Below, piece after piece: positions 18,687 through 41,789 of a stretch of 64,000 bases of DNA. Origin of the DNA: Mayamaea pseudoterrestris (lineage: Eukaryota); NCBI GenBank assembly GCA_027923505.1, contig BROI01000021.1, positions 558,001 through 622,000 of the forward strand, written 5' to 3'. A program made the position numbers and the translations under genes. Numbering within the stretch: position 1 is the stretch's first letter; each line of letters starts with the position of its first letter. The notes below the pieces were generated by a model that saw only the letters and a list, made by a program, of their open reading frames with translations, ran no database searches and was not told the DNA's origin.

Positions 18687-19564
18687 TTACAGAAATTCCA
18701 TGAGCAAATCGTCAAGGTAACCTTCATCCAATACATGCTGGATGCGTTTGTCCCACGCGTTGCCAAAAGGACGAAGTAGCACATTTCTCGGAAAATTGTC
18801 TAGATCGACAAGCTCATTGTCACTTCCGCTCGAAATTGATGACTCAAAAATTGTTATTCTAACATCCAATCTCTCTTTGGGCATCTCATCACCCAGGCGC
18901 CCGGGCCATTCAATCAATGATATGCACTTAGCGAAGACGTGTGGCAGATCGAGCACCATCAAGTCCTTACTATGTCCGGAGAGACGATACAGGTCCATGT
19001 GTCGAATTCTGAAGTAGAACAACGAAATCAAAGCAGCTTAAGCGCCAATATTAAGCTTGAATAGCACACACCTTTCAAACACCCTCTCAATCCAGAGTTT
19101 CATACTTACTCAATTGTTTCCTCATTTTTTCGATCGTCCAATTCTGTTGTATATGAATTACTTAGTAAATATGTCGGAGATGTGATAGGTCGTTCCCAGT
19201 CGCCAATCGCTGCTCGAATAAAGCCTTGGCAAAAAGCAGTCTTGCCAGCCGCTAAATCACCGTCTACGCAAATAGCCGACGGAACGAATGGAACAGCATC
19301 GAAAGAAGAACAAACAGAATACAAGACAGCACCTACTTGCTGCATATCTTGGATTGTAGGGATAATCAAACGAATATCATTGTGTGTTGACGAGGAATAC
19401 TGATCGTTAGCATGAAGCCACCGATTTTGAAGCAACTGAGATCGCCGTGAGCTGCCTTGTCGAAAGACGTTCGTCGAGATTGACCAGCACAATGTACGCA
19501 TAGATATGAACAAGATAAGTAAAGGTGCGACTGTGCAATTGAACAACCGAATCATAACATGCAT
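18687..19564 (-). CDS. tsaE: tRNA threonylcarbamoyladenosine biosynthesis ATPase TsaE (YjeE), probably organelle (plastid)-targeted. Intron 19009-19109
   Basis: Motifs GDLAAGKT (Walker A), ITSPTY, HMDLYRL and LIEWP, preceded by a hydrophobic N-terminal presequence. Confidence 0.9.
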
Positions 19565-19765
19565 CAGTTATTCATCCATTGAGAAGTCGATTCGTAGCAA
19601 AGCCAAATGCCATGGTCGTCAATCGTCAACGAGTCGTGTCATCTGCAACCAATACCGGTACGCCATCGCAAGCTACTTTTTGGTTGTCTACCTCGCACCG
19701 GTTCTCGAAAACGTGGCGGATGTCGTCGCGGTTCCTTGCAAAGCTTGCAGGCGCAAAGTACAACC

Positions 19766-20608
19766 ATGACGACAATAAAGACGCTTAGTAGACTAACTCA
19801 TTTGGTATCGAAGCGGTCATTGAGCGGGTTTTCGTTTGTGGGACCTAAAAGCCTTGACGATGTTCTCAAACTTGAAAAGGTAGCTGACAAATCTACCACG
19901 GACCTTGCGGATCTCTGGTACGCGTTTCACGACGACAAACATGGAGTTTTAGGCTTGGTGTCTCATGGCCAAGACGGAAAAATGGTCATTGAACGAGCAC
20001 GAAAATGGTAATTGACGTCATGTCAGTGTGAAGCGATGAGAGGAAGAAGATGAATGAGGGAAGCGTTTCGTTCCGTTTTGTTGCTTCGCTCTCACCCTTG
20101 CACTTTCGTATATCCTTGATCGGCAGTCCCTTTTTTATCCAACCAGTATTTCGAGACGATGGTGAGTTGTTCGGATGTGACAGTAGAGATACGGAGTACA
20201 ATCTTTTGACCCACAAAACTCAATATTACCCACTCCTTCTCAGGTTTCTTCATGCTTGTCTCGCAGTACATGGATCCATCCCATTTCTGTATGGCGTATC
20301 TTGAAGATTATAAGATGGATCCACACAGCGCCACGCCTTTATTGACCTTTAGTGTGTTTAACGACTTCGCTGATATAAAAAATATCTCTTTTGTCCGCGG
20401 GGACATTTTGAATCGAGGCATTGCGGACAATGAAGGGCAACAAATTGTATTATCCATGCTAAAAAGTTACATTCAAGACCATGAAACGATCAAAAAATTC
20501 AATCAAACACCACAACAGTTTGATATTGATGACTACATAAGCAAAATGAGTGCACGTTGGAAGCAAACTGTTGATGGTTTCAAGGGCAACTACATCAATG
20601 GGGAATGA
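19766..20608 (+). CDS. ATP11: Mitochondrial F1-ATPase assembly factor ATP11/ATPAF1. Introns 20008-20126 and 20162-20243
   Basis: Mitochondrial-type presequence, then PKSLDDVLKLE...LWYAFH, CPFFIQPVFRDDGFFMLVSQ, AYLEDYK...ATPLLTFSVF, FVRGDI and FNQTPQQFD, the ATP11 family pattern. Confidence 0.85.
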
Positions 20609-20640
20609 CTGCAGTAGACGGCAGCAGCCTCGCATGCATA

Positions 20641-21600
20641 TAAGCGTCTTATTTATGTATTACTTTAGTTTTGTGCACAACTCTATACCTAATAAATCAT
20701 AAATGCGCCAAATAACAATTATAGCAAAGATAAAGTTGCAATTGTGTTCCTGCGGCATTAATTTCAACTCATGGCAAATTTAGCATGAGCTTGATTGTAG
20801 TGTAGCATGACAGCTAACACAGTTGTGGAGCAGCGAGGTGGTAGGATACATGCTTTGAAAGGGAACAACAACTTTTATGTGCTTCTGCGCCAATACCATC
20901 CATTAATGGGAGCGCTCTAGTGAATGCAACTTGCTTGAGTGAATGTGATCATATTGTAACATGCACAGTGATGATGTCAATGCATAAACAGTCTAAAGAA
21001 AGCTTGTCAACCATTCTGCAAAGGGTGAAGGTGGCAATGTTTGAGCGAGCAAAATTGAGAAGGCCTTGATATTATGCTGGTCTAAACAAATCTTGGGGGC
21101 AGCAGCAGCAGCAACACTGAAAGTGGAGGCGCCAATTTCTTGCGCTACCAGGTGATGCCTTGCCATTTGAGCAGTTGTCATTGCGATCCCATCCATGGCT
21201 CTCAGATGGGAAGTAGAGTTATAAAATGGTATCAAAAAAGCAAATTGAATGATGCACACTGAAAGCCGTTGCAAGGCAAATGCTGCGAGTTCTAGAGTGC
21301 TGCCGCTGCGCCAACTGCTGCATCAACAGTCAAGCCCCCAGTCATTCAACCCTTTGTGTGCAATCAAGATGTGGGGAATGGATGTGCGGTGACTGCGCCC
21401 ATGCTTCAAGTGGAGGACAGCTGGATACTGTAGCTTTGTGCACACCTGTTTTGTCCAACTCAGCCCAGCAGCAACCCCAGCCACAAGCCAACAGTGTGCC
21501 ATCCCAGTTGATTCAAGCCCATATAGATATCAGATGCTCCTCATACAGTGCTTAAAGCCCAATCATAGCTCACCTCCATATTATAGACATTCAAACCTCT
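20641..21600. other. CpG-depleted, TpG/CpA-rich island; probable methylation-decayed repeat, transposon or pseudogene relic
   Basis: I count only 16 CpG in 960 nt, whereas flanking DNA is CpG-rich. No credible ORF. Confidence 0.6.
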
Positions 21601-21676
21601 GGTCACGATAACTCTTACCTTTTGAATCCAAAAATCCGTTCAAATATGCAAGCTAGACGTGTCACAGTGTGATACA

Positions 21677-21749
21677 GGGAGGCTAGCTCAGTTGGTAGAG
21701 CGCGTGCTTAGCATGCACGAGGTCAGCGGTTCGATTCCGCTGCTTTCCA
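21677..21749 (+). tRNA. tRNA-Ala (anticodon AGC), intronless
   Basis: Full 73-nt cloverleaf: acceptor stem GGGAGGC/GCTTTCC with the G3:U70 Ala identity pair, D arm GCTC/GAGC, anticodon stem CGTGC/GCACG with loop TTAGCAT, T arm AGCGG-TTCGATT-CCGCT and discriminator A. Followed by T4 at 21750-21753, a Pol III terminator. Confidence 0.97.
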
Positions 21750-22168
21750 TTTTGCTGGCAAACTATCGTTAGTTAAACATCATTATGATTTCAGATATAC
21801 TAGGTGCAAGTCGATTTAAGTTTATACTCTCTGCCCTTTGGTTTGCCTTGAGGTGAGTATACTTTAACTGTACGAAACTGACCTCGCTAAACATAACATC
21901 TCGGTAACAGCAGGGCAACGTGCGGTCGCAAAATGCCGGAGTTACTATGTACCGGTATGTATAGCGGGCGAGCGACGGAGCGACGAAAGGAGTCTTTTTT
22001 ACTCGCCGCCGCGAAATGACTCGCTGGCGCTCGCTTGTACGACTCCTACGAGGATCTACGGACCCGTCGATTCTTCTTGACGCACGGCCCTTCTCAGCCT
22101 CATAATTTGAAGCAGCAGCAACATCGATCCGAAGCCTACTCCCTTCCAACACTCTTTGCAGCACTACC

Positions 22169-22903
22169 ATGGATCGTGATTCACTTGTTTACAAAGCCAA
22201 GCTCGCCGAGCAGGCTGAGCGCTTCGATGAGATGGTCTCCGACATGAAGGAGGTTGCTCGCCAGCCGCAGGAGCTCACGGTTGAGGAGCGCAATCTTTTG
22301 AGCGTTGCCTACAAGAACGTGATTGGTTCTCGCCGTGCCTCTTGGCGCGTTGTTACCAGTATCGAGCAAAAGGGAGACCCTGACAAAATGACCATTATCA
22401 AGGACTACAAGGCCAAGATTGAGAGTGAACTTGTCGACATCTGCAACGACATTCTCTCCATCATCGTTGACTCCCTCATCCCGAATAGCACGTCGGAGGA
22501 AGCCAAGGTCTTTTACTACAAGATGAAGGGTGACTACCACCGTTACCTTTCCGAGTTTCAGAGCGGAGATGTACGCAAGGAGAGCGCCGGAGCTGCCCTG
22601 GATGCCTACCAAGCCGCCAGCGGAATCGCGTCGTCGGACCTACCACCTACCCACCCGATCCGCTTGGGACTTGCCCTCAACTTCTCGGTCTTTTACTATG
22701 AAATTCTTAACTCCCCGGATAAGGCCTGCCAAATTGCCAAGCAAGCGTTCGATGATGCCATTGCTGAACTTGACACGCTTAACGAGGAATCATACAAGGA
22801 CTCGACGCTGATCATGCAGCTCTTGCGCGACAACCTTACTCTGTGGACCAGCGACCAGGCCGAAGGCGAAGAGGAGGCACCGGCCGAGGACAAGGGCGAG
22901 TAA
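22169..22903 (+). CDS. 14-3-3 protein
   Basis: Motifs [54 protein letters not shown] and [19 protein letters not shown]. Confidence 0.99.
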
Positions 22904-23158
22904 AGCAAATGACCATTACAAGCGTCGTGATCAACTTTGCGTTGCCTTACAAATATATAAAGAAAGTCTATTAAAAAGGTATTTCAAAACAGGATCATCA
23001 GCCTCTTTAAACTTGCGAGGTTTCTGTTTATAATAATCAACTATGACACGAAAGCAAGAGAGAATTAGGCTGGTCGTAACTTTTAAAACAGTAACGTAGG
23101 TCTATACGACAGTGCCATGACTGAGGGGAAGCGAGGAGACGCCGCCATCCGCCATCCC

Positions 23159-24531
23159 TTATTTTAGGCCCATGGCTTTTTCAACTCTCAGGTGCTCACG
23201 CATTTGAAGGTAGTTGATAGTGCCGTTCAATATCATGAAACTACCGACAATTTGCGCCGTGCGAATCACAACGCCTTTTGGAAACAAAGTCGCAAACGCA
23301 GTCCTGGTTATCATCCGAGCAGACAATGGCCAAGACTGCGTCATAGTGTCAACGACGGGTGGCACGCTCTTGCTTACGAACATTCTAAAAAGAGAAGAGT
23401 ACGAGCTTTGTGGCTGCATTAGCTTAAACGTTGACAGGTTGTGAGGAACATGGGATAGATACCCAGAAACAATGCCGGCTGCCAAGCTACCAGAAGCATT
23501 TGCAAGCATGGGATGACCCAAAAAGAAGGGCTGCATTCGCTCCTCAAAGTAGTCGCTCATTTGATTCAAACCAATGCCAAAGATAATTTCTCGACTTGCT
23601 CTAGGCAGAAGACCCCTTATCCATCTCGATGTCATTGGTTCTGGATTCAAATGGCCGGCGTTGGATGCCTCCAAAATGCTGGAAATGGGTGTCATGGCGA
23701 TACCTGGTGCTATAGCTGTAGCCATTCTAACAATGTTCGGATAGTTGTATTGGTCGGGGTCTACTGATCGCTCAAACATTGTGCGCAAGCCTTTAAAGCC
23801 AGTAATGTAGGCACTGACAGACGTAAACAGCAACGCGCATGGTAAGTTTTTGAGTTGAGAGATTAAACGCTTGCTACGTTCAACATCAACGAGCGCACTT
23901 ACATTCGTGTCGGAACTTGTATGTGCATGTTGGGGAACAAATCAGCCTTCACACCCGTTAGCGATGCATTCAGCATGGCATTCAATGCCGACCGATAATA
24001 GGATTCGATACCCGCGGCAATCGCCACAAAAGGAATATTAATCTCTTGCTGTTGCTGCTCCAGCAGCGGCGTCTGATATTTTCGTGTACCTGTTCGAACA
24101 GTTTCACACAATCCCATAGCAATCTCCGTGGCAATTTCTGGTTCCCTCTTCATCAGTTCTAGCAGGTCCGATCGTAGCATTTCGAAGACGCGGCATTCGT
24201 CAGATATGCACTTAACGGTAGCAAATACAGGATCCATTGAAAGAACCTTCATACTTCCGATACTCTTCGCCTTGATCGCATATTCAACGTTATGAACCTT
24301 GCCGTCACCTGACTCATAGAGCCTTCGGATCTCACCAGTGTCCAAGAGGAAGAATCGATCGGACGGTGCACCTTGCGTCAGCATGACTTGGTTTCGCCCA
24401 AAGACCTTATACTTCATGAGTCTGGATATCTCTGTCAGATGTTCATCCGACACCTTAAAAAACATTTCGCATAGCTTTAGCAGCTCCTTGCAATTGTCAT
24501 CGTCGTCGCGGTTGCTGCCATGGCCTCTCAT
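23159..24531 (-). CDS. Cyclic-nucleotide-binding-like domain fused to a degenerate mitochondrial carrier (SLC25)-like membrane domain. Intron 23814-23902; start uncertain (first in-frame ATG 24531, frame open further upstream)
   Basis: N-terminal half VFGRNQVMLTQGAPSDRFFLLDTGEI...IGSMKVL...FATVKC...VFEMLRSDLLELMKREPEIA has the cNMP/CAP fold pattern. The AT|gtaagt...cag|T intron joins it to TM repeats with RGLLPRASRE..FG, GIVSGYLSHVPH and LFPKGVVIR, which are carrier-like. Confidence 0.7.
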
Positions 24532-24935
24532 TTGCGGTCGAAAGGTCGCTGTGCTGTGCGATGCAACTGCTGTCAGAACAGATGCACCAAAGCTCGCAAA
24601 CGTGTGGTTGTTTGTGGTCGATGCCTCACTTGCTTTTCTCAGCAAGCTATTGATAGCACACTGCTACTTGTAAAGTCCAGTAAGATGGTGTTCGAGAAAT
24701 TGAAGTTGGCGTGGAGGGCATCATCCTCTTGTCGACGATTGGCGTCAAGGTCATGCTGTCATTTTCAGTTTCGCTGCGACTTCAACTAACTGTCTTTCCT
24801 TGGTCAACCGGAAGCATCCAACTCAGCACATACTGTACCGTATCATCTGTAGAGTGCTACAGTCTTTTTACCAATAACCATTAGGATATAATCAGATAAC
24901 CAACAATCTTACCACGATAGTTAATTTTACACCTC

Positions 24936-26807
<1,872 letters not shown>

Positions 26808-27076
26808 GGTCGAAAGCAAGTGAAATGTTGCAGCGGTCGATGGCGAATGGCCCAGGGAGGAAGATATCTTCGCCGTCCACGTAGAATTCTACGTAATTCG
26901 CGGTACTGGAAGGGTCGACGCGTCGCGGAGGTACTTCTACATTCCAATCCACAGTGCATCGACTGGACGACGGACGAGCATCTCGGATTGGCAGCATCTA
27001 CAAGCGATTTCTTCTCCGCAGTTTGTACCACTGCCTTTGCTTGTTCTACATTGCTTCAACCATACCCACAGCCACC
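26808..27076. promoter_or_regulatory. 269-bp bidirectional promoter region shared by ATP synthase beta and delta
   Basis: Divergent ATGs at 26807 (-) and 27077 (+). Contains the perfect palindromes ACGTAGAATTCTACGT (26879-26894) and CGACGCGTCG (26916-26925). Confidence 0.7.
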
Positions 27077-27733
27077 ATGCTATCTCGAACGACGTCGTCG
27101 ACGACATTCCGACTTGTTTTCAACAAGTCAGTCCGCCTGTTGAGCACGGAAGCATCTGCGCCGGCTTCCATGGTGAATCTAAACTTTAGCTTGCCCCACG
27201 AAACCATTTACAAGAATACACCCGTCCATAGTGTCATTCTTCCGGGATCCGAAGGAGAGTATGGAATCACTGCTAATCATGTTCCCTATGTGGCTCAGCT
27301 TAAACCTGGCGTAGTGCAAATTATTCATGCGGCTGAAGGTGGAGGTGAGGCGGAAAAATATTTTGTCTGCGGAGGCTATGCCCTTACACATCCCAACAGT
27401 ACGACGGTGAGTCATAATGGGCGCCTTTTCTACTAGTTAAGATAATCATGGCGGCCTTTGCGAAAGAGTGACGGAATTGAGCTAATATTTAACGTTTATC
27501 TTACGCTGCAACATGCGCGCTCGTTCTCGTTCCAATCACCCATGCAGGACGTTGTTTGCCCGGAAGGCGTTAAACTAGACGAGATTGACTCGGCTGCCGT
27601 TTCGGCTCACTATGAAAAGGCCAAGTCGGCCTTTGGAGCTGCGGCCGCTGGATCTGTGGAGCAAGCCGAGGCACAGATTGACATGGAAGTCAACCGAGCT
27701 ATGGGCCTTGCCATCGGACTCAATTTGAGTTAA
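27077..27733 (+). CDS. ATP16: Mitochondrial ATP synthase F1 subunit delta (homologue of bacterial epsilon). Intron 27407-27547
   Basis: Presequence MLSRTTSSTTFRL..., then LNFSLPHETIY, VILPGSEGEYGITANHVPYVAQLKPGVVQI, KYFVCGGYA and a C-terminal helical hairpin (AEAQIDMEV). Confidence 0.93.
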
Positions 27734-28012
27734 TTAAGATAAAATACTTTAACTTAAAGTACGACGGTTACTTGTATCATATGATCTTTACCGATTCTCT
27801 CGGGAAACATGGGGCGGCATGGCAAGCTAATGGGTTCCTACTACAGGTACTGAACGTCGTCGTTTGTGTCGTGGTTGAACCGCTACGACACTCATTGCGA
27901 GCGCACGAGCGCACCCTTCACCACACACGCGCGTCGCTGCATGCTCATTGTCAAACTCAACTTCTCTACTCCACACTTATATCATCAAGGAGATAGTACA
28001 AAGGTGAAAACG

Positions 28013-31000
28013 ATGTCGCTATCGCTATCCGACGGACTCCGATTTGCCTTGCTCCGGCAACACGATGCACCCGCTTCCGATTCCGCTTCAGCACCGCAAC
28101 TTGATCCAGTCCAGCCGTCTAATTTAAACTGGATGGCGATTCCTCGGGATGACCCTGGATTAGCGTATTTGTATCATGCGAACGAGTTGCAATGCATCGT
28201 AGATGGCGGTAAGGTTTTATTTCGCACGCCGCGCCCCAGTCAAAAGGCCATGGTTTTGGATATGGCAGCCTCGGGAGATGGACGCATGGTTGCCGTCGCT
28301 TGGTGGCATACGACGAGCAATCAAGAGGAGGCAATCGCGAGCGACTCCAATATATTGCTGTATTGCTACAACGTGACGAGCAACGGTGGATTTGAGGAGC
28401 GCTACACATACACGATACCCGCGACGCAAGCTACTCTTGCAGACGTCCGGGCCATGAGTTTTGGATCAAATCACACGCTCGCCTTGGTCGACAGCGATTC
28501 AAATTTGCACTTCATTCAAAACAATGGCGTTGGAAAGATCCTGCGTTCTAATGCTACTAGTGCATCATTTGCTCCAAACGGAAATTTTCTGGCAGTTGGA
28601 CTCATTGACGGGACAATTAACATCTACAATGCAGCCTTGACAATGAAGTCAGCCTCAACCATCAAGGCTGCTATCAATTCGACCTGGGACTTTCCAATGG
28701 CTGGACCTCAATGTCCATGCACTCATTTGGATTGGGTTTCTTTAGATGTCCTAGTGGCTGGATATTGCCGCGTGACGCCTGGAGATGATCCGCCCGAAGA
28801 TGCCGACATGGACGATGAGGCTGATCATGAAGCGTTTCTTTTTGTGAACGAAATGGAGCAAGATTTTTCACTGAAGGAGTGCTACGATTTGGGCGATGTT
28901 GTACCTTTCTTTAACGTTCCCAAAGGCCGTCGACACAATTTCTACACGTGCTGTTTAATTGAAAAGAAGCTCATGCTTGTCGCGACAAACCTAGGGAGCG
29001 AAATTAAAGTTGTCGCTTACGAAGATAAGGAATGGAAGATTATTGATGTTCCAGAAGGAGACGATGTACACTGTCCCACGTCCGACGACGACGAGTTTAC
29101 TTTTCCGACGGGATTAGGCATTATGATCACCGCAGGAAAACCAGTAACTGTTCTTGCGAGCACGAGTGGGTCTTTGTCATACTTTAGCGTTTTGCACGAG
29201 CAGCATTCAACGTATTTTGATCTACCATTGATGGAACCAATGCTGCCTCAAGCGGTTGTACCGTTGGACGACACACAGTCGATTGCTGTCGCGGCAGCTT
29301 GCACCCTTGTTCCGGCAAAAAACGCTGAAATTGATGTTTCATCTGCCGACCCGGCGATCACCACTCTTGAAATTACATCGTCGTCCGCTGAAACACCGGT
29401 GCTTAACCTTCAGGGAGTTGAACCTACGTTTGTGTCGATGTCATCTGGATCGGGAACGGATCTGCCCACTTTTGGGACCGGCACAGCTGCACCGACGTTC
29501 TGCTTTAGCTCTCCCGCCGGCAGTAGGTTACAAGTTGGAGCAGCTTCAGGGGCAGCTTCGGCTACAAGTATGCCTTTTAACATATTTGAAAAGCGTTATT
29601 CTGTTCCGGTTTCATCAATGGTCAAGCCATTGTTTGGAAGTAATGCAAACCAAGTCAAGCTTGCTGCGACACCCGCTGCCACGCATGAGCTATCAAGTCC
29701 TGCTGCGGAAAAGGCTGCAAGCGTTTTTGATTTATTCGATACGGAAAAAGTTGGTAGTCTTCCCCTTTCGATGTTGGAAATTATGGTCGACGAGCTCGGC
29801 GAAGGCTTTTGCGGCGATGAGTTTGACGTGCAGGTGAACCTTATTGATCAGAATGGTACTGGTACTCTGGATCGTTCTTCATTTATTAGTTGGTACCAAC
29901 AATTTGCAGAAGGCAACGAGAAAAATGCGTTCAATGACGATAATTCCATGGAGTCATTCGAGCGAGCGGAGCGGGCTGAGGAGGCCGAGAACGCTCGGAA
30001 AGCCTTTTTGGCCATCGCAAAAAAAGAAAGCGGCTCGCCAGTGATTCAATCGTCGCAATTTGAAGAACTTATGGAATCGTTGGGAACGACTTATCACGAC
30101 GAAGACCACGGACAAGCTTTGAAAAGGTTAGAAAGGCAGGATGGTTGTGTGCATCTGGATGACTTCGCGACGTGGTATGTCAAGTTTTTGTTCGATGAAG
30201 ATGGCGACTCCGACGATGGCAAAGGCAATAGAAGCGAGGTCGATGTTCTAGAGTCATCGCCCAGTCAAGTTGTCGGCGGTTGGGGAACTCTATTTAAATC
30301 AGATCCTAGCAATTGGAAGTGCGTATCGTGCATGGTTTCCAATAATCCAACAGTCAATCAATGCGCGGCGTGCCAGGTGTCACGTCCTGGGAGCCAGGAA
30401 CAAGATGTTGTTGGTGCAACTGCTGATGCCTCTGCATTTACTATTGAATCAAGTATTGGTCCCCAAGGGTTCTCTTGTGGCGGTTCGTTGGAAACATTCT
30501 CTTCTGCATTCACATTACCCTCAACGCAATTCGCAGCTCCAGCAACTGGCGGTTTTCGTTTTGGATCATCTGAACGCGAGGCAGTGACACTGGCCGCTTC
30601 ACCTGGCGCAACCAAGGGGAGCGAAGCGAGTGCAATTTTGGACAAGGCTCGGGCTGCTGTAGAATCGCGCTATCCGCCGGCCAGTTCTAGTGCACCAAAG
30701 AATTTCGATTCTTGTCATTCTGCTAACCGAACGCTGTCTACTCAAGCTACTTTGTCGGAGTCAGGGGAGCGGAAGGGATCTCTGCAGACACCTGCTGGTG
30801 ATGCACAGTCAAGCGATAATGTATACTCGCCGGACATCGGAGTTTCAGACAGTCATTCCACGCCAGGGGCCATCGAGCCAGTAACGGCGCCAGTCTTCGG
30901 TTCCGGTTCAGCAGCAGCTACACAGCCATTTATCTTTCCTTCTTCAACGGAAGTTGCGATCGAAACACGCTTAGCTCCGAGTGCTCAGATCAATATTGTT

Positions 31001-34000
31001 TCCAAGCCTATGTTGAAATCGCCATCAAGCGAAGCCGTTGAATCGCACATGGCTGCTATAGTACCATCTAGCGATGCAGCAACAACGGCAGCACTTGCGT
31101 TCGACTCGCATGACAAAGAAAAGTCTGGTCTTCTGCCGCGGTCTATGTTATTAGAATTAATTGAACAACTCGGTGAAGAATTTTCTGGCGAAGAATTGAA
31201 CAAGCAGGCGAGTATGATTGATACTAAGGGCACCGGCATGCTAAACCGTAGCTCCTTCATTAGCTGGTATCATCATTTTACTGAAATGGACGAAAGCGAC
31301 AAGGGTGATGAACTTTCCTTAAATTCAGACGATCGAGCAGAGCGAGTTGAAGAAGCGGAAAAGGCGAAGCAAATTTTTTTGACCATTGCGACTAGGAAGG
31401 AAGGTGAACCATTTGTACAGGCCTCGCAATTTGAGATTCTCATTAACTCCATGGGTGCCACATATTGTGAGGAAGAGCACGGTAAAGCTCTGAATCAATT
31501 AGCAAAGAGTGGCCAGGTATTTCTTGATGATTTTCTTAAGTGGTACATCACATACCTTTTTGACGAAGAATGCGAGTCTGATACGGAAACAAGCAAGGAC
31601 AAAAGAACTGTTGCTCCCTCGTCCAGTCAAAGTGCTAGCTGGGGAATCACTTTTAGAACGGACCCAACTAGCTGGAAGTGCAATTCGTGTTTAGTCCTTA
31701 ATCAAGGTGCTGTGTTTACCTGCGCGGCATGTGAGACGCCACGTTCCAGAAGCAAAGACGCAGGTGCTGCTGGCAATTCTGTAATTGGTGGCGTAACAGT
31801 TGCTCCAGCACTAGCGGCGGAAGGGTCAACCGGCTCATTTGCTGGAGGTTCTACGTTTGATGGGCCTGCACCAGGAAGTGATAAAGTCGGGGTTTCAAGT
31901 GACAAAGAGGAGACCGCTGCAACCTCGTGCCTACCTGCCGATTACATGGCGACAACGCTTTGCAGTGTCACAAATCCTGAGGTGGTAGCAATTAGAGAAT
32001 CGACTTCTTCCAAGTTTAAAGCCAATTTCACATCAGCACCACTTAGTTCATCGGTAGCTAGTGTTGCGAATGTTGCGAAAACCAGTGGTGGCAAGCAATC
32101 CGTGAAGGCCGCGAAGAGTTCCGATAACTTGGCATACCCACCGATAGAGTTTCAAGCACCCACGCCTTTCGACTCCATCCAGCGATCTACCGGTAGTTTG
32201 AAACCTGAAACCGTACCTGCAATGCCTATGAGTTCCAACGTTGATCAAGTTCAGCAAAGCAGCGACAGAAAGCCATCTGCTAAATCGGCGTACCCACCAA
32301 TTGATTTTCAAGCACCAAAGCCTTTCGGTTCTGACTCAAAAGTAGCACCTAGCAACCCCGGTATATCACAGAATAAGCAAAGCGGCGACAGAAAGCCATC
32401 TGCTGGATCGGCGTACCCATCAATTGATTTTCAAGCACCGAAGCCTCTCGGTTCTGACTCAAAAGTAGCACCTAGCGACCCCGGTATATCACAGAATAAG
32501 CAAAGCGGCGACAGAAAGCCATCTGCTGGATCGGCGTACCCACCGACTGATTTTCACGCGCCAAAGCCTTTCGGTTCTGACTCAAAAGTAGCACCTAGCG
32601 ATCCCTGTATATCACAGAATAAGCAAAGCGACGACAGAAAGCCATCTGCTGGATCGGCGTACCCACCAACTGATTTTCAAGCACCAAAGCCTTTCGGTTC
32701 TGACACGAAAGTAGCACCTAGCGATCCCGGTATATCACAGAATAAGCAAAGCGGCGACAAAAAGCAATCTGCTGGATCGGCGTACCCACCGACTGATTTT
32801 CAAGCACCAAAGCCTTTCGGTTCCGACACAAAAAGCAAAGCAGCGACAGAAAGCCATCTGCTAAATCGGCGTACCCACCAATTGATTTTCAAGCACCAAA
32901 GCCTTTCGGTTCTGACTCAAAAGTAGCACCTAGCAACCCCGGTATATCACAGAATAAGCAAAGCGGCGACAGAAAGCCATCTGCTGGATCGGCGTACCCA
33001 TCAATTGATTTTCAAGCACCGAAGCCTCTCGGTTCTGACTCAAAAGTAGCACCTAGCGACCCCGGTATATCACAGAATAAGCAAAGCGGCGACAGAAAGC
33101 CATCTGCTGGATCGGCGTACCCACCGACTGATTTTCACGCGCCAAAGCCTTTCGGTTCTGACTCAAAAGTAGCACCTAGCGATCCCTGTATATCACAGAA
33201 TAAGCAAAGCGACGACAGAAAGCCATCTGCTGGATCGGCGTACCCACCAACTGATTTTCAAGCACCAAAGCCTTTCGGTTCTGACACGAAAGTAGCACCT
33301 AGCGATCCCGGTATATCACAGAATAAGCAAAGCGGCGACAAAAAGCAATCTGCTGGATCGGCGTACCCACCGACTGATTTTCAAGCACCAAAGCCTTTCG
33401 GTTCCAACACAAAATTAACAGAATTTGTTTGTTCTAGCGTGTCGCAACACAAGCAAAGCAGTGAAAAGCGAACGGGGCCCACTGGATCGGTATACCCGCC
33501 ATTTGATTTTGAGAAGAAGCAAGACATTGAATCAGCAAAGATGCATTTAGCTACGCCGGCGTATCCGTCGATTGAACTATCGCCGCTGTCGTTCGATGTA
33601 TCCAACACTGCCAGTGGTACCTCATTGAACACATCAATTCCTGTCACGAAATTTGATTCCACACAAGTAACTGCCCACAACGTTGAATGTAAAGCACCAA
33701 CGCCTTCCATTGGGTCACAGAACACGGGGGCTGCAGACTCAATTACACGCTCGCAGCAGACGCTCGCTGGCCTCGCTGCAATGTCGCCTGCCGCAGCAAC
33801 GAATACAGCTTTCAAAAAAGACGATTTGTCGCAGTTAACCACGGTAACGCAAACAGAAGTAGGCGCGACGCGATCATTCGCACAAAGTTCGAATCTGGTC
33901 CCATCAGGCAACTTTGCTGGCGGTCGCAGACAGCAACAGAATCGAACGGTCATGCAGACGCATCATATTGCCAACGAGAATGTCTGCACGCTTCAGTTTG

Positions 34001-36608
34001 CATCTTTATGCGGGGCGATGCGGGAAATTCTTGCATCTTTAAGCAACTGTTCGCGGGACAACGGCGGATCCGAACTGCATTCATTGGATGTTGTAATTGC
34101 TGAACTAAACCGACTTATCTCTGCATGCCACGAGCTGACACACTCTATTCAATCGTCAAAGCGACAAATATCTCTCGTACTTGGCAAACGAAGCGAATGT
34201 CATCGTCGAGTTTCAGAGAGTCAGTTTCTGATGGAAAATGTCAGAAGTGATTATCGAAACGAGGAAGATTTCTTTCGGTGGCAGCCACTTGATTTGACAT
34301 CCGAGAAACGACGTCGTTCACTCATAAGTTCCGTTATACTTGTCGACAAATATGCCAAACTTCTTCAAGAACGATTGAGTCTGCTAATGAATTTGGAGGG
34401 ATCATCTGGGAGTTTGGGTATGTTGAGCGGCGTTAAAAATCATTTCGAAGGCTTTGAACGATCTAAGGAGGGAATTATGCTCGTGATTGGGACAGTTGAA
34501 GCGCTGACTTCCGAGTTTTATATCGAGCGACAACCCTCCGAAATGTCGTTTGGCTTGCTCTCACCAGCGAAACCAGCGGTGAAGAGCGCGGTCCTTAAGG
34601 CCAAGCATAAATGGGCCGAGGTTGAAAATCTTATGCAAGAACTGTCAGTGCCTGATGTCAAATTGCTTTCCTGCAGTAATGCGTGTATGGCGACGTTTCA
34701 GTCAACAGAGGCATCGCACAGGTCCGCGTCACGACAAAAGATTGTCCGGAAGCATGCGACGCCGTCTTTATCTCTGCAACAAGCTTTAATCCCGCGGCCT
34801 GAATGGGACGAACCAATTACGATGGACAAAGTGCAAGCGTCTCGGGTCACTTTTACGCCTCCAAGCATACTTAGTCAAACTGCTTTTAGTGATGCTGGGA
34901 ATGCAGCTTTAAAAACGTTTGGTGCGACGCGCTCAATTGCAAGGGAAACTGATTACGTTTGCCGCCATGACCCGCAAGCTTCTGTCGCTAATAAGTCTCC
35001 ACCTAGATCTTTTACAGCAAGAGAATCTATGTCAGCTCGATATCTGACAATGGAACCACGATCGACTGGTGCTTCTAGAAAGTCGTCTCGAGACGAGGAC
35101 GAGTCAGCAAAAAACCAAACTTCGGCCGATAATCACGAACCGCCGACGGTGAAGCAATTTGCCGATTTGTCTGGTATCGCTGGCTCCCTTTTTTCGCTCA
35201 GCAATGATGATTTGGCCATAGAATTTGATCAAGTTGCGCTCAAAGCGGTAGGTTCAGAGAGTCCGGCAGGTAATTCGTTTAGTGAACTCCGTCCATCTTC
35301 GATTGCCCTTGGTGAAGTAAGTGACGATAGTACACCTACAGTGGGCTCTTCGTCTTCGATGGTTGAGGATGAGCAGAAGAGACTTGACCAAACTGAATTT
35401 TACCGTCTGCTGGTAAATTTTTACCACACACACAATCCTTTGAAACTTGACGAGGTTAAGGCAACCCTTGAAAAGTATGTGGGCAAAGAAATGGAGCTTT
35501 TCGAAAAGCTGTCCAAAAAGTAAGTTCCTATTTCATGTTCTGCTCTCGTGTGTTCACCATCAGCTCAGCGTCTTTAACCAGGTATGGTGTGGAGAATCCT
35601 CTTCGTTTAAGCACGAGCAAATCTGATAATACAGGTACGGCGACGTCTCAAGCTGTTACATCCGCAGCTGCCGCTGAAAAAGTATCCCCACAGCGGCCTT
35701 TACTGTTCAATAAGCCAGCGACTGTCGCTTCTTCAACCAATTTGGCTCATGCGCCCACTCCCCCGTTTGGTTCTGCCCAATCTGCGCTACAGTCACCATT
35801 CATGCAACCTCCACCTGCTCTAGCGGAACTCCCAAAGTATAACACTACTTCCCCCTTCAACCAGACGAGTCAGAATAGCGTTGTTTCATCGACAAGTCGT
35901 TTCGCTAGTCCGTCGAATGGCGCACCTGTTCCCTTTGGGACACCAGAATTGAAGAACAACCAAGGCATTATGGGAAGCATACCGGTAGCACCTTCACAAG
36001 CGAATAAGGATCCTCGTCAGATGCTAATCGAATTTTATCAGCAACAAAATCCAAGTAAGCTAGCAGATGTCGACAAACTATTAACCAAATATCAAGGACA
36101 ACACGAATCCATGTTTCGAAATTTGGCGAAGAAGTACGAAATGGACCCTGCTGTGTTTGGCTTGTCAGGCGACGCTCTAACACCGAGCGGCTCTGTTAGT
36201 TTTGGACAAAACTCTCCACTTGGCACGACATCTAACTTTGGATGCATGAATGCCTCATCATTCAAAAGCCAACAAGGCGGGTTTGTACAAGCATCGCCCG
36301 GTGGCGCAAGCTTCGGCCAAGCCTCCGTCTTTGGCCAGACCTCGACGCCATCTTCTATGTCAGGTGTGGCTGGGTTCGGATCACCGACACCTCTCGGTGG
36401 AGGTGGACTTTTTGGCCAGTTATCACCCGTCACTGGGTTTGGCACGACTGTCTCTGGCGGATTTGGTGCGTCTGCACCTGCGGCAAGCTTTGGCGCGTTG
36501 GCAAGCAGCACACCAGGGGCGAACTTTGCTTCGCCGGGAGCAGGTTTTGGTTCCCCATTCGGGAGCGTTGGCACAAATGCGACGCCCTTTGGCGCAGCGC
36601 GTCGCTAA
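28013..36608 (+). CDS. Very large Nup214/Nup159-like FG nucleoporin: N-terminal beta-propeller, two EF-hand + RanBP2-ZnF modules, 41-aa repeats, coiled coil and FG tail. Frameshifted in this assembly by a 581-bp duplication; intron 35520-35581
   Basis: WD-like N-terminus (ASFAPNGNFLAVGLIDGTINIY), zinc fingers WKCVSC..N......CAAC and WKCNSC..N......CAAC, a helical region, and a C-terminus rich in SFGQ/GFGS/LFGQ/PFG. Removing one duplicate copy puts the 27866 and 33439 ORFs in the same frame. Confidence 0.72.
32253..33414 (+). repeat. Coding minisatellite of 123-bp (41-aa) units, arranged as two near-identical 581-bp blocks (32253-32833 and 32834-33414)
   Basis: The unit SAYPPTDFQAPKPFGSDSKVAPSDPGISQNKQSGDRKPSAG recurs every 123 nt. 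The only difference I found between the blocks is 32825 G versus 33406 A. Confidence 0.95.
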
Positions 36609-36676
36609 ACTAATTAGGTAGTTTTACGTTATGTCGTTTAACAGAATCATATCAGAGTTACAGGTACACGTGTTAA

Positions 36677-37630
36677 TTAGACTAGCGCACTGCCCTCCAA
36701 ATGCTGTCGATGAAGGCGCCCATACATAATGAAATCGGAGCGCAGATAGAAGCAAGCATCAATGCACCAAAGAGCTGACGAGAAAACATCCCATCTTGGG
36801 TCGTGTTCATCAAGCTGAAGTATTGATATAAAACCATCGACAAGACTTCCAACCAGAAAGAGCAAATCTCCAAAGTCTTCCAACCGTTCCGGATCGTCCA
36901 TGATATAAAAGCTACTCGTCTGTAGCCAAGGTCTAGTCCTCTTACCACTGCAAGAAAGTACTGCACTGAGTATATACACATTTACGGATATGGAATCAGA
37001 GGCGCTCGCCAAACGTTCATTGCGGTACTCCATTAGCACGGCAAGGAGGCCAAAGACAGCAGCGATACCAAAAGTTATGGCCGAAACAATGGTTCTTCGA
37101 TGAGCACTATGCTTTCGCAACCGCTGATACCAGACTGTGCAGCCAGAATCTCCTCCCTCTTGCCCATCTGTAGTGCATTCATCGTCGCCATCAAGAAGCA
37201 GCCTCCAGTCGTTCCACGTTTCCGTGACGGCCCTTCGCGTTCCAAGACGCTTCTTGACACGGTAGGCCCACTCAACGTCGACTATACTGTTTAACAAATA
37301 GACAAGCGGAGCCATGATATTGAGAAGGATGTAGAGAAGAGTTTGTGGCGGCTGTTGCGAAGCATCCCAGATCGCTATTATAATGTACAATCCTCCGCCA
37401 AGGATAAAGAATGAATCGCTTAAAAAGGACCAGAACAAGTCTTGCTCGGACTGCTGAATATACTGGAACACATGGGACATGGCAACATCATCCAGATCGG
37501 GCAAAGCCTTGGGGATAATTGTTGGACACGCAAGCGAGCAGCGTGATGTGCAACCGGTGCCCTGACTGCTGTCATGGCTGCTATCTTCGCTGCTTGAATC
37601 TTGGCGTCCCTCTGAAACATGCGGATCCAT
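36677..37630 (-). CDS. Hypothetical multi-pass membrane protein (YrhK-like helices)
   Basis: 317-aa ORF with about 6 hydrophobic segments, e.g. SDSFFILGGGLY, GDLLFLVGSLVD and SALWCIDACFYL. Confidence 0.7.
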   Translation of the reverse strand: MDPHVSEGRQDSSSEDSSHDSSQGTGCTSRCSLACPTIIPKALPDLDDVAMSHVFQYIQQSEQDLFWSFLSDSFFILGGGLYIIIAIWDASQQPPQTLLYILLNIMAPLVYLLNSIVDVEWAYRVKKRLGTRRAVTETWNDWRLLLDGDDECTTDGQEGGDSGCTVWYQRLRKHSAHRRTIVSAITFGIAAVFGLLAVLMEYRNERLASASDSISVNVYILSAVLSCSGKRTRPWLQTSSFYIMDDPERLEDFGDLLFLVGSLVDGFISILQLDEHDPRWDVFSSALWCIDACFYLRSDFIMYGRLHRQHLEGSALV

Positions 37631-37933
37631 TATTGCTGAAATGCAAAGAAGTTATAACGCCACTGCTTTGGAAGAACGATGTGTGAATGCGAGGGTAAGA
37701 ATTGCCATTGTTCCAAAGTCCGTGTTGCCCAAAGCTTTCAACTTTCAACCGTCGCTCGTGCGAATTCTGTGCAATCTTTCCGATTGAAAACCGCAGCGAC
37801 TCGTATTGGCGCGCTGTCGCGGCGCCGCACAATGAAGACGCAGCGACTGATGGCGCGAGCTGGCCGCAAAACGACGTGTATTGAATGTAAAAGCGCGACT
37901 TTACCTGAAGCATTTAACAAAGTGTCTTAACAT

Positions 37934-38656
37934 ATGTTTCCTTCAAAGTTGGCGACATCAACTAAAGTGATCCCGCACAGTAGACGTTCACCTCCAGCAG
38001 CTTGGAAGGAGTCGCTTCGACGAGCATGCATGGATCGAGCACGACAGCGGTTTGCAGGTCAGCCGCTGCACGAGCAACCCCAACAATATTCGGCTGAGCA
38101 AATTATCGCATCGGAATTGCACCTAAGTGAAGCATACGTCAAGGGAGAATTTCATGACAACAACGATTATGAACTCCGACGAGATTACGATCGCGAATGG
38201 CAGCGGTGCGACGAGCGCTTGTGCATGACCGAAGAAGAGTGGATCGATTTACTAGAGCAAGTAGCGTGCGAACTGGAGTTGACGAGGACGCAGCACGCAG
38301 TGGACGACCAAGACTCGTACTTGGAGCAACAGATTGCCAACTTTGAGAAGTGGCAACAAGGAAGGTCCGAGGAGGACGATGAACTAGGGACTTCATGTCC
38401 TATTTGCTACAATGGACGACTTATAACGACAGACTCAGGAGAAATTGTATGTTCCGACTCTATGGATGGCTCTTGCAATATGCGAGTGTCAATGTTTCAG
38501 CCTTCTCTGCCAAATTTCCGCGAGAAGCTGCAGCAAACAATCGAGTCTCATTCCATTTCGTGCTCCGGCACTGTTACGTTTCAAATGGGACCTGAGCGAG
38601 CTTTTCTTATTGCCGTGTGCACTGTTTGTCACGAATCACAACCTGTGCGATACTAG
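37934..38656 (+). CDS. RPAIN: RPA-interacting protein (RIP/RPAIN)-like
   Basis: N-terminal SPPAAWKESLRRACMDRAR, an acidic middle, and a C-terminal Zn-binding CPIC...C...C...H...C...CTVC. Confidence 0.75.
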   Translation: MFPSKLATSTKVIPHSRRSPPAAWKESLRRACMDRARQRFAGQPLHEQPQQYSAEQIIASELHLSEAYVKGEFHDNNDYELRRDYDREWQRCDERLCMTEEEWIDLLEQVACELELTRTQHAVDDQDSYLEQQIANFEKWQQGRSEEDDELGTSCPICYNGRLITTDSGEIVCSDSMDGSCNMRVSMFQPSLPNFREKLQQTIESHSISCSGTVTFQMGPERAFLIAVCTVCHESQPVRY

Positions 38657-39179
38657 TAGTGTTCCTGTAAACAACTGGATCTACCAGTTTGTGGTCAATG
38701 GCATGCATGAGCGCCCCAAAGGAACAATATATAATGTGTGAACGGAAGTAAATTACTATCTTGTTCATTCTTGTTAATGCACTTGTACTAGAGTAGTTTG
38801 ATAGTTTGTATCATACAAACAATACTGCTAGCATAGTAAGTAGCTGCGCCAGGATGATGACGAGACGAGGAGTTGGGCAGTCGTGCATGACGCACAGGCA
38901 TTTGCCACTATGATACTTATTGTAGTCATTTCGGAAGCCAATTTTCTATTGCCCGTCACAAATGACAGTCTATCAAAACCACCTCGTCAGTCGCTCCCAG
39001 CGAGGACGACATCGACGTGCATAGGCGACGTCGCCATCATCACAACATCAGGCTGCGTTTTCGCTTCCGAGTTTGACCTGCTACCGGTAGAAGCTACGAG
39101 TAAAACTTCTCTCTCGATTGGTAAAATTACATTTGTCGCGTCGCATACAACGCCACTGGCTGCTTCGACGAGTACTGCG

Positions 39180-39989
39180 ATGCTGACAAAACGTGATACA
39201 ACGGCAAAGTTGACAGTCATGATGATGCTGCTGACAGTCGTATCAGCATATGTGATCCAACCGACCGCAAATAGAGGACCGAAAGTCCAATCAAACTCTC
39301 GGTTTGCCCACATTAAACTCACATGGGAGGAGCAAGTCGCTGAACGAATTCTGGAGCGATTTCATGAACATTCTTCCGTATCAGACGAGCCTTTGATGGT
39401 TGCCATTGTCGGCATCCCCGGCAGTGGCAAAAGCACAAGCGTCGAAGTGCTAGCCGACATACTTAACCAAGTCATCAGCGACGACGCCTGTCTCTGTATG
39501 CCGTTTGACGGTTATCACATTCCACGAGCCCAACTCTTGACATTTCCAAAAGCAGAAGACGCTATTTGGAGACGAGGCGCTCCCGATACATTTGACGCCA
39601 AGTTACTTTGTCGTGACTTGCATCGCATACGCAACGGATGCGAAGAGCGAGTTCTCATTCCTGGCTTTTGTCACGCCGACGGCGACCCAATTTGCGACAC
39701 GCATGAGTTTCAACGACAAAATCACAAGATCGTACTTTGTGAAGGACTATATCTGCTGCACGATCAACATGGTTTCGAGCACGTCAAAGACTACTTTCAT
39801 ACGAGTTTGTTTCTTGACGCAAACTTGGAGACTTGCATGTCTCGACTTAAGGTACGCAACAAGGTGATACCGGGATATGGACCCGAAGAAATTGAATATC
39901 GAGTGGATGCCGTGGACCGCATCAATGCCCTAATTGTGCAGCAGTCCAAGGTGCGAGCAGAAATTGTTGTGCCAGTGGCAACCTGGTAA
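39180..39989 (+). CDS. P-loop kinase of the phosphoribulokinase/uridine kinase superfamily (YFH7-like), likely plastid-targeted
   Basis: Motifs VAIVGIPGSGKST, MPFDGYH, RRGAPDTFD and IVLCEGLYLL. Signal peptide ending VSA-YV. Confidence 0.85.
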   Translation: MLTKRDTTAKLTVMMMLLTVVSAYVIQPTANRGPKVQSNSRFAHIKLTWEEQVAERILERFHEHSSVSDEPLMVAIVGIPGSGKSTSVEVLADILNQVISDDACLCMPFDGYHIPRAQLLTFPKAEDAIWRRGAPDTFDAKLLCRDLHRIRNGCEERVLIPGFCHADGDPICDTHEFQRQNHKIVLCEGLYLLHDQHGFEHVKDYFHTSLFLDANLETCMSRLKVRNKVIPGYGPEEIEYRVDAVDRINALIVQQSKVRAEIVVPVATW

Positions 39990-40140
39990 ATAGGTGCACA
40001 TCCATGTCTCAGAATATATAATATCGGCATGCTTTACATGAATACTCGTATGCAGCAATCCAAGGCGCGGCATGAAATTTTAGTACCACTGGCAACTTGG
40101 TGAAGAGTTGCACATTTAGAATAGATATAAATGGCATATA
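39936..40140 (+). repeat. Diverged 114-bp tandem duplication of the kinase gene's last codons, stop and proximal 3' UTR
   Basis: VQQSKVRAEIVVPVATW-TAA (39936-39989) versus MQQSKARHEILVPLATW-TGA (40050-40103), offset exactly 114 nt. Confidence 0.85.
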
Positions 40141-40334
40141 TAACGCTTTATTACATATTAGACTGGTTGTTGCATGCATATGTACAAGCATCGTTCAAGC
40201 ATGGATCATGAACTTGGAGCATTCGGTGTTTCAATTAACGAGAGACTGACCGTCTAGTGGTAGCAACATTGCATGTAATAATAGGCATCCAGAAAAGCAA
40301 GTTATTTATTAAGAAACACGTTATTGTTAGTCCT

Positions 40335-41568
40335 TTACTTGCTCTCCTCCAGCGCCGACGCTCCCGAGATAATCTCAATGAGCTCGGTGGTAATGCGAGC
40401 TTGACGGGCACGATTGTACTTGAGCGTCAACGCATCAATCATCTCCCGCGCATTCTTAGATGCATTCTCCATGGCCGTCATGCGGGAAGACTGCTCGGCA
40501 GCAGCGCCATCCATGAACGAGTGGAAGATTTGCGACGCTAAAACAAACTCGTACAAATCCTGGACAGCTTCCGCCTTGTCTGAATCAAACTCGTAATTGC
40601 TCATACTCTCTCCCTCCTCCGTCTGGACAACAAAAGGCGTTACAACCTTGTACATTTGATTGTACGTGGCTGCGTTGACGTACGAGTTGTAAAACATGAC
40701 GATGGCATCATAATCCTTGGCCCCAGCAGCAACAATCTCAGTCGCCATGGCCGAGGCCAACGCGTAGGATCCAGGCGCAATGACATCGGTCAAAGATAGC
40801 TTGAGTTCGTCTCCAACGAATCGACGAAGCTGTGAGCGTCCCTTTTCTCCAATAACGACAACATCGGCTTCCTTTCCCTGCCTGTGCAGCTTTCGGAGAC
40901 AATCCTTGGTGGAGCGACTGATGAAGGAATTGATACCTCCGCATAGTCCCTTTTCGGACGTAAAAGGAATGATCAAAACCTTCTGCGGAACCTCCTCGTA
41001 TGTGGCATTCTCAACAAAGGCAGGCTCTCCGTTGATCGCCTTGGTCCACGAGTTAAATGGCTTGGCCACCGCGAGACGATTCTCGTCTCCCTTGAGCTTT
41101 GCAGCGGACACCATCTTCATGGAACTGGTAATTTTTTCAATATTCTTGGTAGATTGAATCTGGTTCCAAACTGCACGGAATGGATGAAAGAAGTAATTAA
41201 TGATTAATACACTTGCGTTGAAGAAAAGCGGTAAAACGATGCGAGCTTCCAACTTACTTTGCTTCTCGGTAGCCATGCCTCGCAGTTGCTGCGTCACAAC
41301 ATGTTGTTGAGAAAACCTGAAGAAGAGGAAGAAAGGATTGAATCATCAGATACGTCGCATTAAGCGTGTAATGACTGCGACTACAACCAGAAGGCTTTCG
41401 CCGTCCGCTGCTACTACCGGTCGCAAAAACAATAAATCCGACCGTTCGTCACGCGCTAATTGTAATTCTTTTTGAATAAAAGCTTAGTGAAACTTCCTTC
41501 TCATGCAAGTCTACTCACAATGCAAGCGCCCGAGGCGCTGTTTTCTGCGTAGCCAATCGAAGCGCCAT
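40335..41568 (-). CDS. ATP3: Mitochondrial ATP synthase F1 subunit gamma. Introns 41317-41518 and 41171-41257
   Basis: Presequence MALRLATQKTAPRAL...RGMAT, then NIEKITSSMKMVSAAKL, TSEKGLCGGIN, EQSSRMTAMENASKNA and YNRARQARITTELIEIISGA. Confidence 0.97.
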
Positions 41569-41789
41569 GGTGATTTGCGTGGAATTATGTTCACCCGCCA
41601 CGGCGATCTCCTCCGCAAAACAGGTTTTGAGCTTCTGTAGATGTCCGATCAATACCTTTGCGACGTGATTGAATCTCCACCGCGAAATTCACAAATCGAG
41701 CTCCTAATCACTTTTTTCAATCCTTTGCGTCCAGCACGACCAGTCGACGGGGTGTGACGCTAACCAGCCTTCCAAGTGTTTCAGCAGAA

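Follow-up and report, generated by a model that had tools for sequence, protein, structure and literature searches.

A head-to-head pair of genes for the beta and delta subunits of mitochondrial F1-ATP synthase in Mayamaea pseudoterrestris, kept across diatom lineages with changing neighbours

We analysed a stretch of 64,000 nucleotides (nt) from the raphid pennate diatom Mayamaea pseudoterrestris (contig BROI01000021.1, positions 558,001 to 622,000), which is called the window below and in which positions are counted from the first letter. According to the accessible part of the genome paper (PMC9724779), the assembly has a size of 30.63 Mb in 41 contigs and contains 11,019 genes. Stop-to-stop open reading frames (ORFs) between positions 19000 and 42500 of the window were scanned with Pfam, and four genes related to the F1 part of ATP synthase were found: ATP11 and the genes for the beta, delta and gamma subunits. 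Together they span 21.8 kb and about a dozen genes. The beta and delta genes lie head to head, on opposite strands with their starts facing away from each other, and the 269 base pairs (bp) between their start codons (26808-27076), well within the limit of about 1 kb that we set for such a pair, are presumed to form a shared two-way promoter. Outside 19000-42500, no ATP synthase family was found by Pfam among the 65 ORFs of at least 110 amino acids (aa).

The ATP11 gene is located at 19766-20608 on the forward strand, with exons at 19766-20007, 20127-20161 and 20244-20608 and an open frame of 213 aa. Its ORF at 20210-20608 matched the family profile PF06644 with an E value of 2.7e-8 and 34.4 bits, above the cut-off of 22, and a weaker match of 20.3 bits, just under the cut-off, was obtained with the ORF at 19598-20011. 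A search of solved structures with ATP11 exon 3 alone gave no match. Atp11 acts on F1 beta, and family membership suggests that the product of this gene is a putative chaperone of that subunit. The beta gene is located at 24936-26807 on the reverse strand (exons 26807-26774, 26607-26429 and 26237-24936; open frame of 504 aa), and its ORFs at 24936-26360 and 26240-26659 matched PF00006 (E 2.5e-69), PF02874 and PF22919. The delta gene is located at 27077-27733 on the forward strand (exons 27077-27406 and 27548-27733; open frame of 171 aa). Its ORF at 26897-27436 matched PF02823 (E 1.5e-15), and its first exon agrees at 100% identity with MPSEU_000899400, an NCBI protein from Mayamaea pseudoterrestris. 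The gamma gene is located at 40335-41568 on the reverse strand (exons 41568-41519, 41316-41258 and 41170-40335; open frame of 314 aa), and its ORF at 40335-41342 matched PF00231 (E 4.8e-74).

All three subunits were of the mitochondrial type when they were compared with solved structures: mitochondrial chains were among the top matches, and chloroplast chains scored lower. Beta matched mitochondrial beta chains at 4.4e-224 and chloroplast chains at 1.6e-194. The delta subunit of mitochondrial F1 is a homologue of bacterial epsilon, and here it matched mitochondrial delta at 3.5e-18 and chloroplast epsilon at 2.7e-6. For gamma the top matches were mitochondrial or alphaproteobacterial chains; the best was 6tmh_g (3.3e-52), the top chains named mitochondrial reached 3.3e-47, and chloroplast gamma reached 1e-30. 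The N-termini read from the delta and beta sequences are rich in R, S and T. The distinction from the plastid enzyme mattered most for gamma, because in P. tricornutum gamma is the only nucleus-encoded subunit of the plastid ATP synthase, as stated in the accessible part of a preprint (10.64898/2026.07.08.737214).

The exon models were read from the sequence, and their joints were checked in four public runs, two of which behaved like transcript assemblies. In transcript-like contigs of these two runs the predicted splice joints of ATP11, beta and delta were found exactly. The ATP11 introns of 119 and 82 nt showed GT..AG joints in a transcript-like contig, the beta introns of 166 and 191 nt were seen joined in such contigs, and the joint of the 141-nt delta intron was seen in two runs. 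The joint check covered a 20-kb stretch with ATP11, beta and delta, and the gamma introns of 202 and 87 nt come from reading of the sequence. It had been claimed, from the letters of the window, that the F1 genes tend to have longer introns than most. This is correct for five of the seven introns, which measure 119-202 nt compared with 62 and 89 nt in two other introns, but not for the remaining two of 82 and 87 nt. A DNA-like contig of run X1 carried a 6-nt insertion at 26282, in the second beta intron, and many single-letter differences from the window over 20888-31538. These differences fit the heterogeneity of 2.97% given for the diploid strain in the part of the genome paper available to us (PMC9724779).

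We then turned to other genomes. Full-length delta proteins were aligned, and with this alignment DNA was retrieved from metagenome contigs, which gave 36 loci with 10-kb flanks (denoted by L and a number), and 19 protein segments of the window were compared with these loci by tblastn; the segment for ATP11 exon 1 was out of frame and useless. In 12 loci, beta was found on the opposite strand upstream of delta (L002, L003, L005, L017, L020, L021, L022, L024, L025, L028, L029 and L031). In four more (L009, L016, L018 and L026), the contigs end before the main beta exons, and a signature search found the first beta exon next to delta. The divergent beta/delta arrangement was therefore present in every diatom-like locus in which at least 495 nt precede delta, 16 of 16. 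Of the remaining 20 loci, nine were transcript-like contigs of about 1-1.8 kb that lack introns and have 30-307 nt before delta, six were genomic contigs with less than 480 nt upstream of delta, and five were distant delta-like matches (L032-L036), which were set aside as uninformative on diatoms. No beta was found within the flanks of these five; in L033 and L034 these flanks cover 10 kb to either side. At L033:6500-13500 long ORFs are open in all six frames, with no beta within 10 kb, and this pattern suggests very GC-rich DNA of another kind of organism. When delta was searched against contigs of prokaryote genomes, three weak bacterial matches were obtained, and there was none in viral contigs; neither search added context from eukaryotes.

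The 16 positive loci are diverse. Identities between their delta first exons range from 54% upward, and they form about eight groups at less than 75% identity. In a tree of beta sequences, all eight loci tested belonged to the diatom clade (support 96/90), sister to Triparma; the beta of L025 grouped with the centric diatom Leptocylindrus (83/81). In a tree of delta sequences, the pair occurred in both main groups, one with named pennates and the other with centric genera as named relatives (Chaetoceros, Helicotheca, Dactyliosolen, Coscinodiscus, Leptocylindrus, Proboscia and Corethron). Consecutive gene numbers for beta and delta, on contigs of equal size, were found in five named species: Epithemia clementina (ACA910_018614/018613), Cyclotella atomus (ACHAXN_013397/013396), Cylindrotheca fusiformis (scaffold1398 genes 16/15) and, in the Bolidophyceae, Triparma retinervis (jg9478/jg9479) and Triparma columacea (g6610/g6611). 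The sequence-only reading had stated that beta and delta alone are tightly linked among the four genes, and the 16 informative loci together with these five species, two of them Triparma, bear this out.

The pair also shares details of structure at its 5' side. The first exon of beta was seen in the window (26774-26807) and in L002, L003, L009, L016-L018, L020, L024-L026, L028, L029 and L031. It measures 28-34 nt in nine of ten lineages (34 nt in the window; longer in L025) and encodes M[ILF]AAR[RK]. The intron that follows it, adjoining the shared spacer, has the same position in every lineage in which it was seen, an unusually strong conservation. The delta intron follows an NS[TV]T motif at the same place in the window and in most genomic loci, and is absent in L002:10001-10510 and L017:1554-1958. 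This absence looks like a single loss, because these two loci are mutual closest relatives with 84% identity.

The spacer between the two start codons measures 269 bp in the window and 391-581 bp in nine other lineages, ten lineages in total. The spacer of the window carries a perfect palindrome of 16 nt, ACGTAGAATTCTACGT, at 26879-26894, 72 nt from the beta start codon, which is a candidate for a shared cis-element. No second copy of the palindrome occurs in the 64 kb, even with as many as three mismatches. Several other lineages have related sites, of the form C[CT]ACG..GA[AT]TT[CG]TACGT, at a distance of 96-155 nt from the start of beta. Among all 8-mers, ATTCTACG was the most widespread, occurring in five of ten spacers; of 200 shuffles, one attained a maximum of five. 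In a Gibbs motif search the information content was 14.57, compared with 13.66 +/- 0.28 (maximum 14.30) in 40 dinucleotide shuffles. The shorter pattern T[CG]TACGT was present in 8 of 13 lineage spacers (null mean 1.4), and within 60-200 nt of the beta start in 7 of 13 (null mean 0.5); in each case none of 2000 shuffles reached the observed count. We take the spacer motif as a lead, not a proof.

The spliced contig of the delta transcript starts at 26850, 42 nt from the beta start. With this start, the delta leader takes in most of the spacer, the palindrome included. When the region 26850-27079 was folded as RNA, the palindrome formed a hairpin of 6 bp. The delta leader as a whole was not unusually stable over this region, with a z score of -1.48 and 17 of 200 shuffles folding at least as well.

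The distances between the four genes agreed with those first read from the letters. The start-to-start distance of 269 bp between beta and delta is exact, the distance of about 4.3 kb from the beta stop to ATP11 was measured as 4,327 bp from stop to stop, and that of about 12.6 kb from the delta stop to gamma as 12,601 bp from stop to stop. Unrelated genes are interspersed, as had been noticed: those for a 14-3-3 protein, a cyclic-nucleotide-binding protein, a very large protein with WD40, EF-hand and RanBP-finger domains, an RPA-interacting protein and a protein of the PRK/uridine-kinase family. From this arrangement the sequence-only reading had proposed that the four F1-related genes make up a co-regulated cluster, an operon-like neighbourhood. 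Selection would have assembled such a cluster around the F1 genes, for example as one chromatin domain. In favour of such a cluster are the established action of Atp11 on beta, the presence of ATP11, beta and delta alike in spliced transcript-like contigs, and the gathering of four related genes in 21.8 kb, which would be improbable by chance at 8e-6 to 3e-4 for sets of 5-15 genes.

This range comes from an estimate in which beta/delta was fixed as one locus among the 11,019 genes, and the probability that two more genes of the set lie within 5-10 genes of it was calculated. For a set of five F1-related genes the result was 8e-6 to 3e-5; it rose to 9e-5 to 3e-4 with 15 genes and to 5e-3 to 2e-2 with 120 genes of oxidative phosphorylation. 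These values are suggestive rather than conclusive because the gene set was defined after the cluster had been seen, in a scan of very many windows.

The linkage of ATP11 and gamma to the pair was not recovered in relatives. With exon 3 alone as the query, ATP11 was found in none of the five loci whose sequence continues for 4.3 kb or more past the beta stop (L002, L003, L024, L025 and L029). Gamma was found in none of the four lineage-distinct loci with 10 kb beyond delta (L002, L004, L022 and L025), a weaker test than that for ATP11 because these flanks fall short of the 12.6 kb in the window. A comparison of orthologues across diatoms had been suggested along with the cluster, and its outcome is divided: in the informative loci beta and delta were linked throughout, but ATP11 and gamma were not found beside them. 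The other 13 neighbour segments of the window gave no tblastn match in the 36 loci. The segments with no match in these loci include ATP11 exon 3, gamma and the genes for the 14-3-3, cyclic-nucleotide-binding, large WD40, RPA-interacting and PRK-like proteins that intervene in the window, as well as the DapB-, TsaE- and SET-domain genes. Among 67 ORFs of six long loci scanned with Pfam, the flanking genes differed from locus to locus, and no further ATP synthase or ATP11 family was found. Neither the spacer palindrome nor TTCTACGT was present in the upstream regions of ATP11 and gamma, and each of these two genes faces a different divergent partner of its own. A TsaE-like gene at 19106-19567 (reverse strand) is head to head with ATP11, a DapB-like gene for dihydrodipicolinate reductase at 41673-42818 (forward strand) is head to head with gamma, and both are unrelated in function by Pfam. 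A co-regulated cluster of four genes is thus not supported by these results, and we regard it as quite unlikely.

One neighbour outside the F1 genes has a history of its own. In six of nine informative lineages, an ATG16-like WD40 gene is found just downstream of delta in tail-to-tail orientation, forming a beta/delta/ATG16-like block (L002:10688-12929, L022:3843-6060, L029:10641-11932, L014:1082-2467, L006:695-1390, L027:903-1353 and L009:1293-1478). It had no match in the 64-kb window, and Mayamaea has lost this third member of the block.

We concluded that the real feature of this locus is an old head-to-head beta/delta unit, probably with a two-way promoter, and that ATP11 and gamma are lineage-specific neighbours rather than parts of a four-gene cluster. 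We give this reading a probability of about 0.7. Adjacency and orientation of beta and delta are kept in distant relatives while the flanks change. The divergent arrangement most likely goes back at least to the ancestor that diatoms share with Bolidophyceae, and would have been retained since then as its surroundings were reshuffled. The spacer may act as a shared two-way promoter that drives both genes. In that case the 5' parts of beta and delta would be interleaved, with the T[CG]TACGT-type element at 60-200 nt from the start of beta among them, and a break between them would harm at least one of the genes. We propose that such interleaving couples the expression of the two genes and also protects their adjacency. 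The analysis shows what the genes are, where they are spliced, how beta and delta lie in the metagenome contigs, how long the spacers are and that the motif recurs; that the promoter is shared, that the two genes are co-regulated and that selection has kept them together is what we infer. As far as the data reach, the nearness of ATP11 and gamma is specific to the Mayamaea lineage, each gene having its own upstream region in addition to its own partner, and it is possibly due to chance.

Several points weigh against this reading. Chance is not a comfortable account of the nearness of ATP11 and gamma, given probabilities from 8e-6 to 2e-2 depending on the gene set. The pattern T[CG]TACGT is missing from 5 of the 13 spacers, and its shuffle counts are optimistic, because the pattern was derived partly from the same sequences and because L018, L026, L028 and L031 are close kin (85-94% identity). 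The contigs cannot reveal true transcript starts. Gene numbers are a proxy for adjacency and carry no orientation, and they do not always agree: on contigs of equal size, the tags are 22 apart in a second assembly of Cyclotella atomus (ACHAWO_009455/009477) and 5 apart in Discostella pseudostelligera (ACHAWU_002937/002942). Equal co-expression is not what the complex requires, because F1 takes three beta subunits for each delta. Finally, the persistence of the delta/ATG16-like pair means that short-range gene order can be kept in diatoms in the absence of a common function, which weakens any case for co-regulatory selection as the force that keeps beta and delta adjacent.

A rival view is that the beta/delta adjacency has no regulatory meaning and has simply persisted, as a short spacer leaves almost no place for a harmless break. 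The spacers of just 269-581 bp and those lacking the motif are consistent with it, and the unrelated tail-to-tail pair of delta and the ATG16-like gene provides a precedent. The two pairs, however, differ in how well they have been kept: beta/delta was preserved in 16 of 16 loci, and in two Triparma species by gene numbers, whereas delta/ATG16-like was lost in three of nine lineages, including that of the window. Neutral persistence would also leave the recurrence of the motif at a similar distance from the beta start unaccounted for, and would make it a coincidence that the pair so preserved encodes two subunits of one complex. We consider it unlikely.

The order of genes in bacteria raises another explanation. 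In bacterial atp operons, atpD (beta) is followed by atpC (epsilon), and these are the homologues of beta and mitochondrial delta, so that the diatom pair could descend from a joint transfer of atpD and atpC from the mitochondrial ancestor. Besides this adjacency, the matches of delta to bacterial and chloroplast epsilon as well as to mitochondrial delta, and of beta to atpD products, are in keeping with such a relic. A direct relic is argued against by the orientation, which is divergent and not co-directional in all 16 loci, and by the separate starts and introns of beta and delta. The distant delta-like loci L032-L036 had no beta in their flanks, and the relic would have to be older than the last common ancestor of eukaryotes and to have survived in this lineage only; to our knowledge, the beta and delta genes are unlinked in model eukaryotes. 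We regard direct descent from the operon as extremely improbable. A bolder form of the idea would be that the atpD-atpC order of the mitochondrial ancestor moved jointly to the nucleus, was turned head to head and has stayed together in this lineage ever since, and that the presence of ATP11 and gamma beside it means that the locus attracts F1 genes. This is very improbable as well.

Among known arrangements, the beta/delta unit comes closest to conserved head-to-head gene pairs that share a promoter. Histone gene pairs (H2A-H2B and H3-H4) resemble it in that two subunits of one complex are encoded divergently across a spacer of a few hundred bp and are kept over very long evolutionary distances. 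Unlike beta and delta, which appear as single copies in the window and are used at three beta per delta, histone pairs are multi-copy and their products are needed at 1:1; the products of beta and delta, moreover, go to the mitochondrion, and both genes bear introns. The bacterial atp operon has the same two homologous genes as immediate neighbours serving the same F1 head, but it is co-directional and gives a polycistronic mRNA, whereas the diatom pair is divergent, monocistronic, intron-containing and nuclear, with putative mitochondrial presequences. Head-to-head pairs in animals also have a short common spacer, functionally associated partners and conserved adjacency (PMC1487180), and interleaved regulatory DNA that would block separation has been described as a cause of kept microsynteny (PMC3514665). 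These two papers concern vertebrates and metazoans, no case from diatoms or from ATP synthase was seen in their accessible parts, and the promoter role of the diatom spacer is presumed. The four-gene proposal finds its nearest likeness in the nitrate assimilation cluster of fungi, where genes that are not homologous but serve one process adjoin each other in the nuclear genome, as described in the accessible part of PMC2040219. Clusters of that type are identified because the entire set is conserved or was transferred together, whereas here only two of the four genes stay together in relatives.

How nuclear genes for a single mitochondrial machine are coordinated is poorly understood beyond yeast and animals. 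The beta/delta pair has stayed joined in centric and pennate diatoms and, apparently, in Parmales although its surroundings were lost, and it offers a natural experiment on the coordination of subunits. The spacer is a small and defined piece of DNA of 269-581 bp with a candidate palindromic element, and is directly testable; it might also serve as a compact, ready-made two-way promoter for two transgenes in diatoms. For scans of genomes the locus carries a caution, since an eye-catching cluster of four genes came down to one old pair and two neighbours not common to related lineages.

A literature search found no paper on paired beta and delta genes or on clustered F1 genes in diatoms, with most subscription journals outside its coverage, and two supplement files of the paper on copper in Mayamaea contained neither the gene tags nor the term 'ATP synthase'. 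Within the window, the very large gene that follows delta (27854-36608, forward strand) encodes a beta-propeller like that of NUP159/214, a pair of EF-hands and a zinc finger of the RanBP2 type. Transcript contigs showed that its last two ORFs are joined by a 62-nt intron at 35520-35581.

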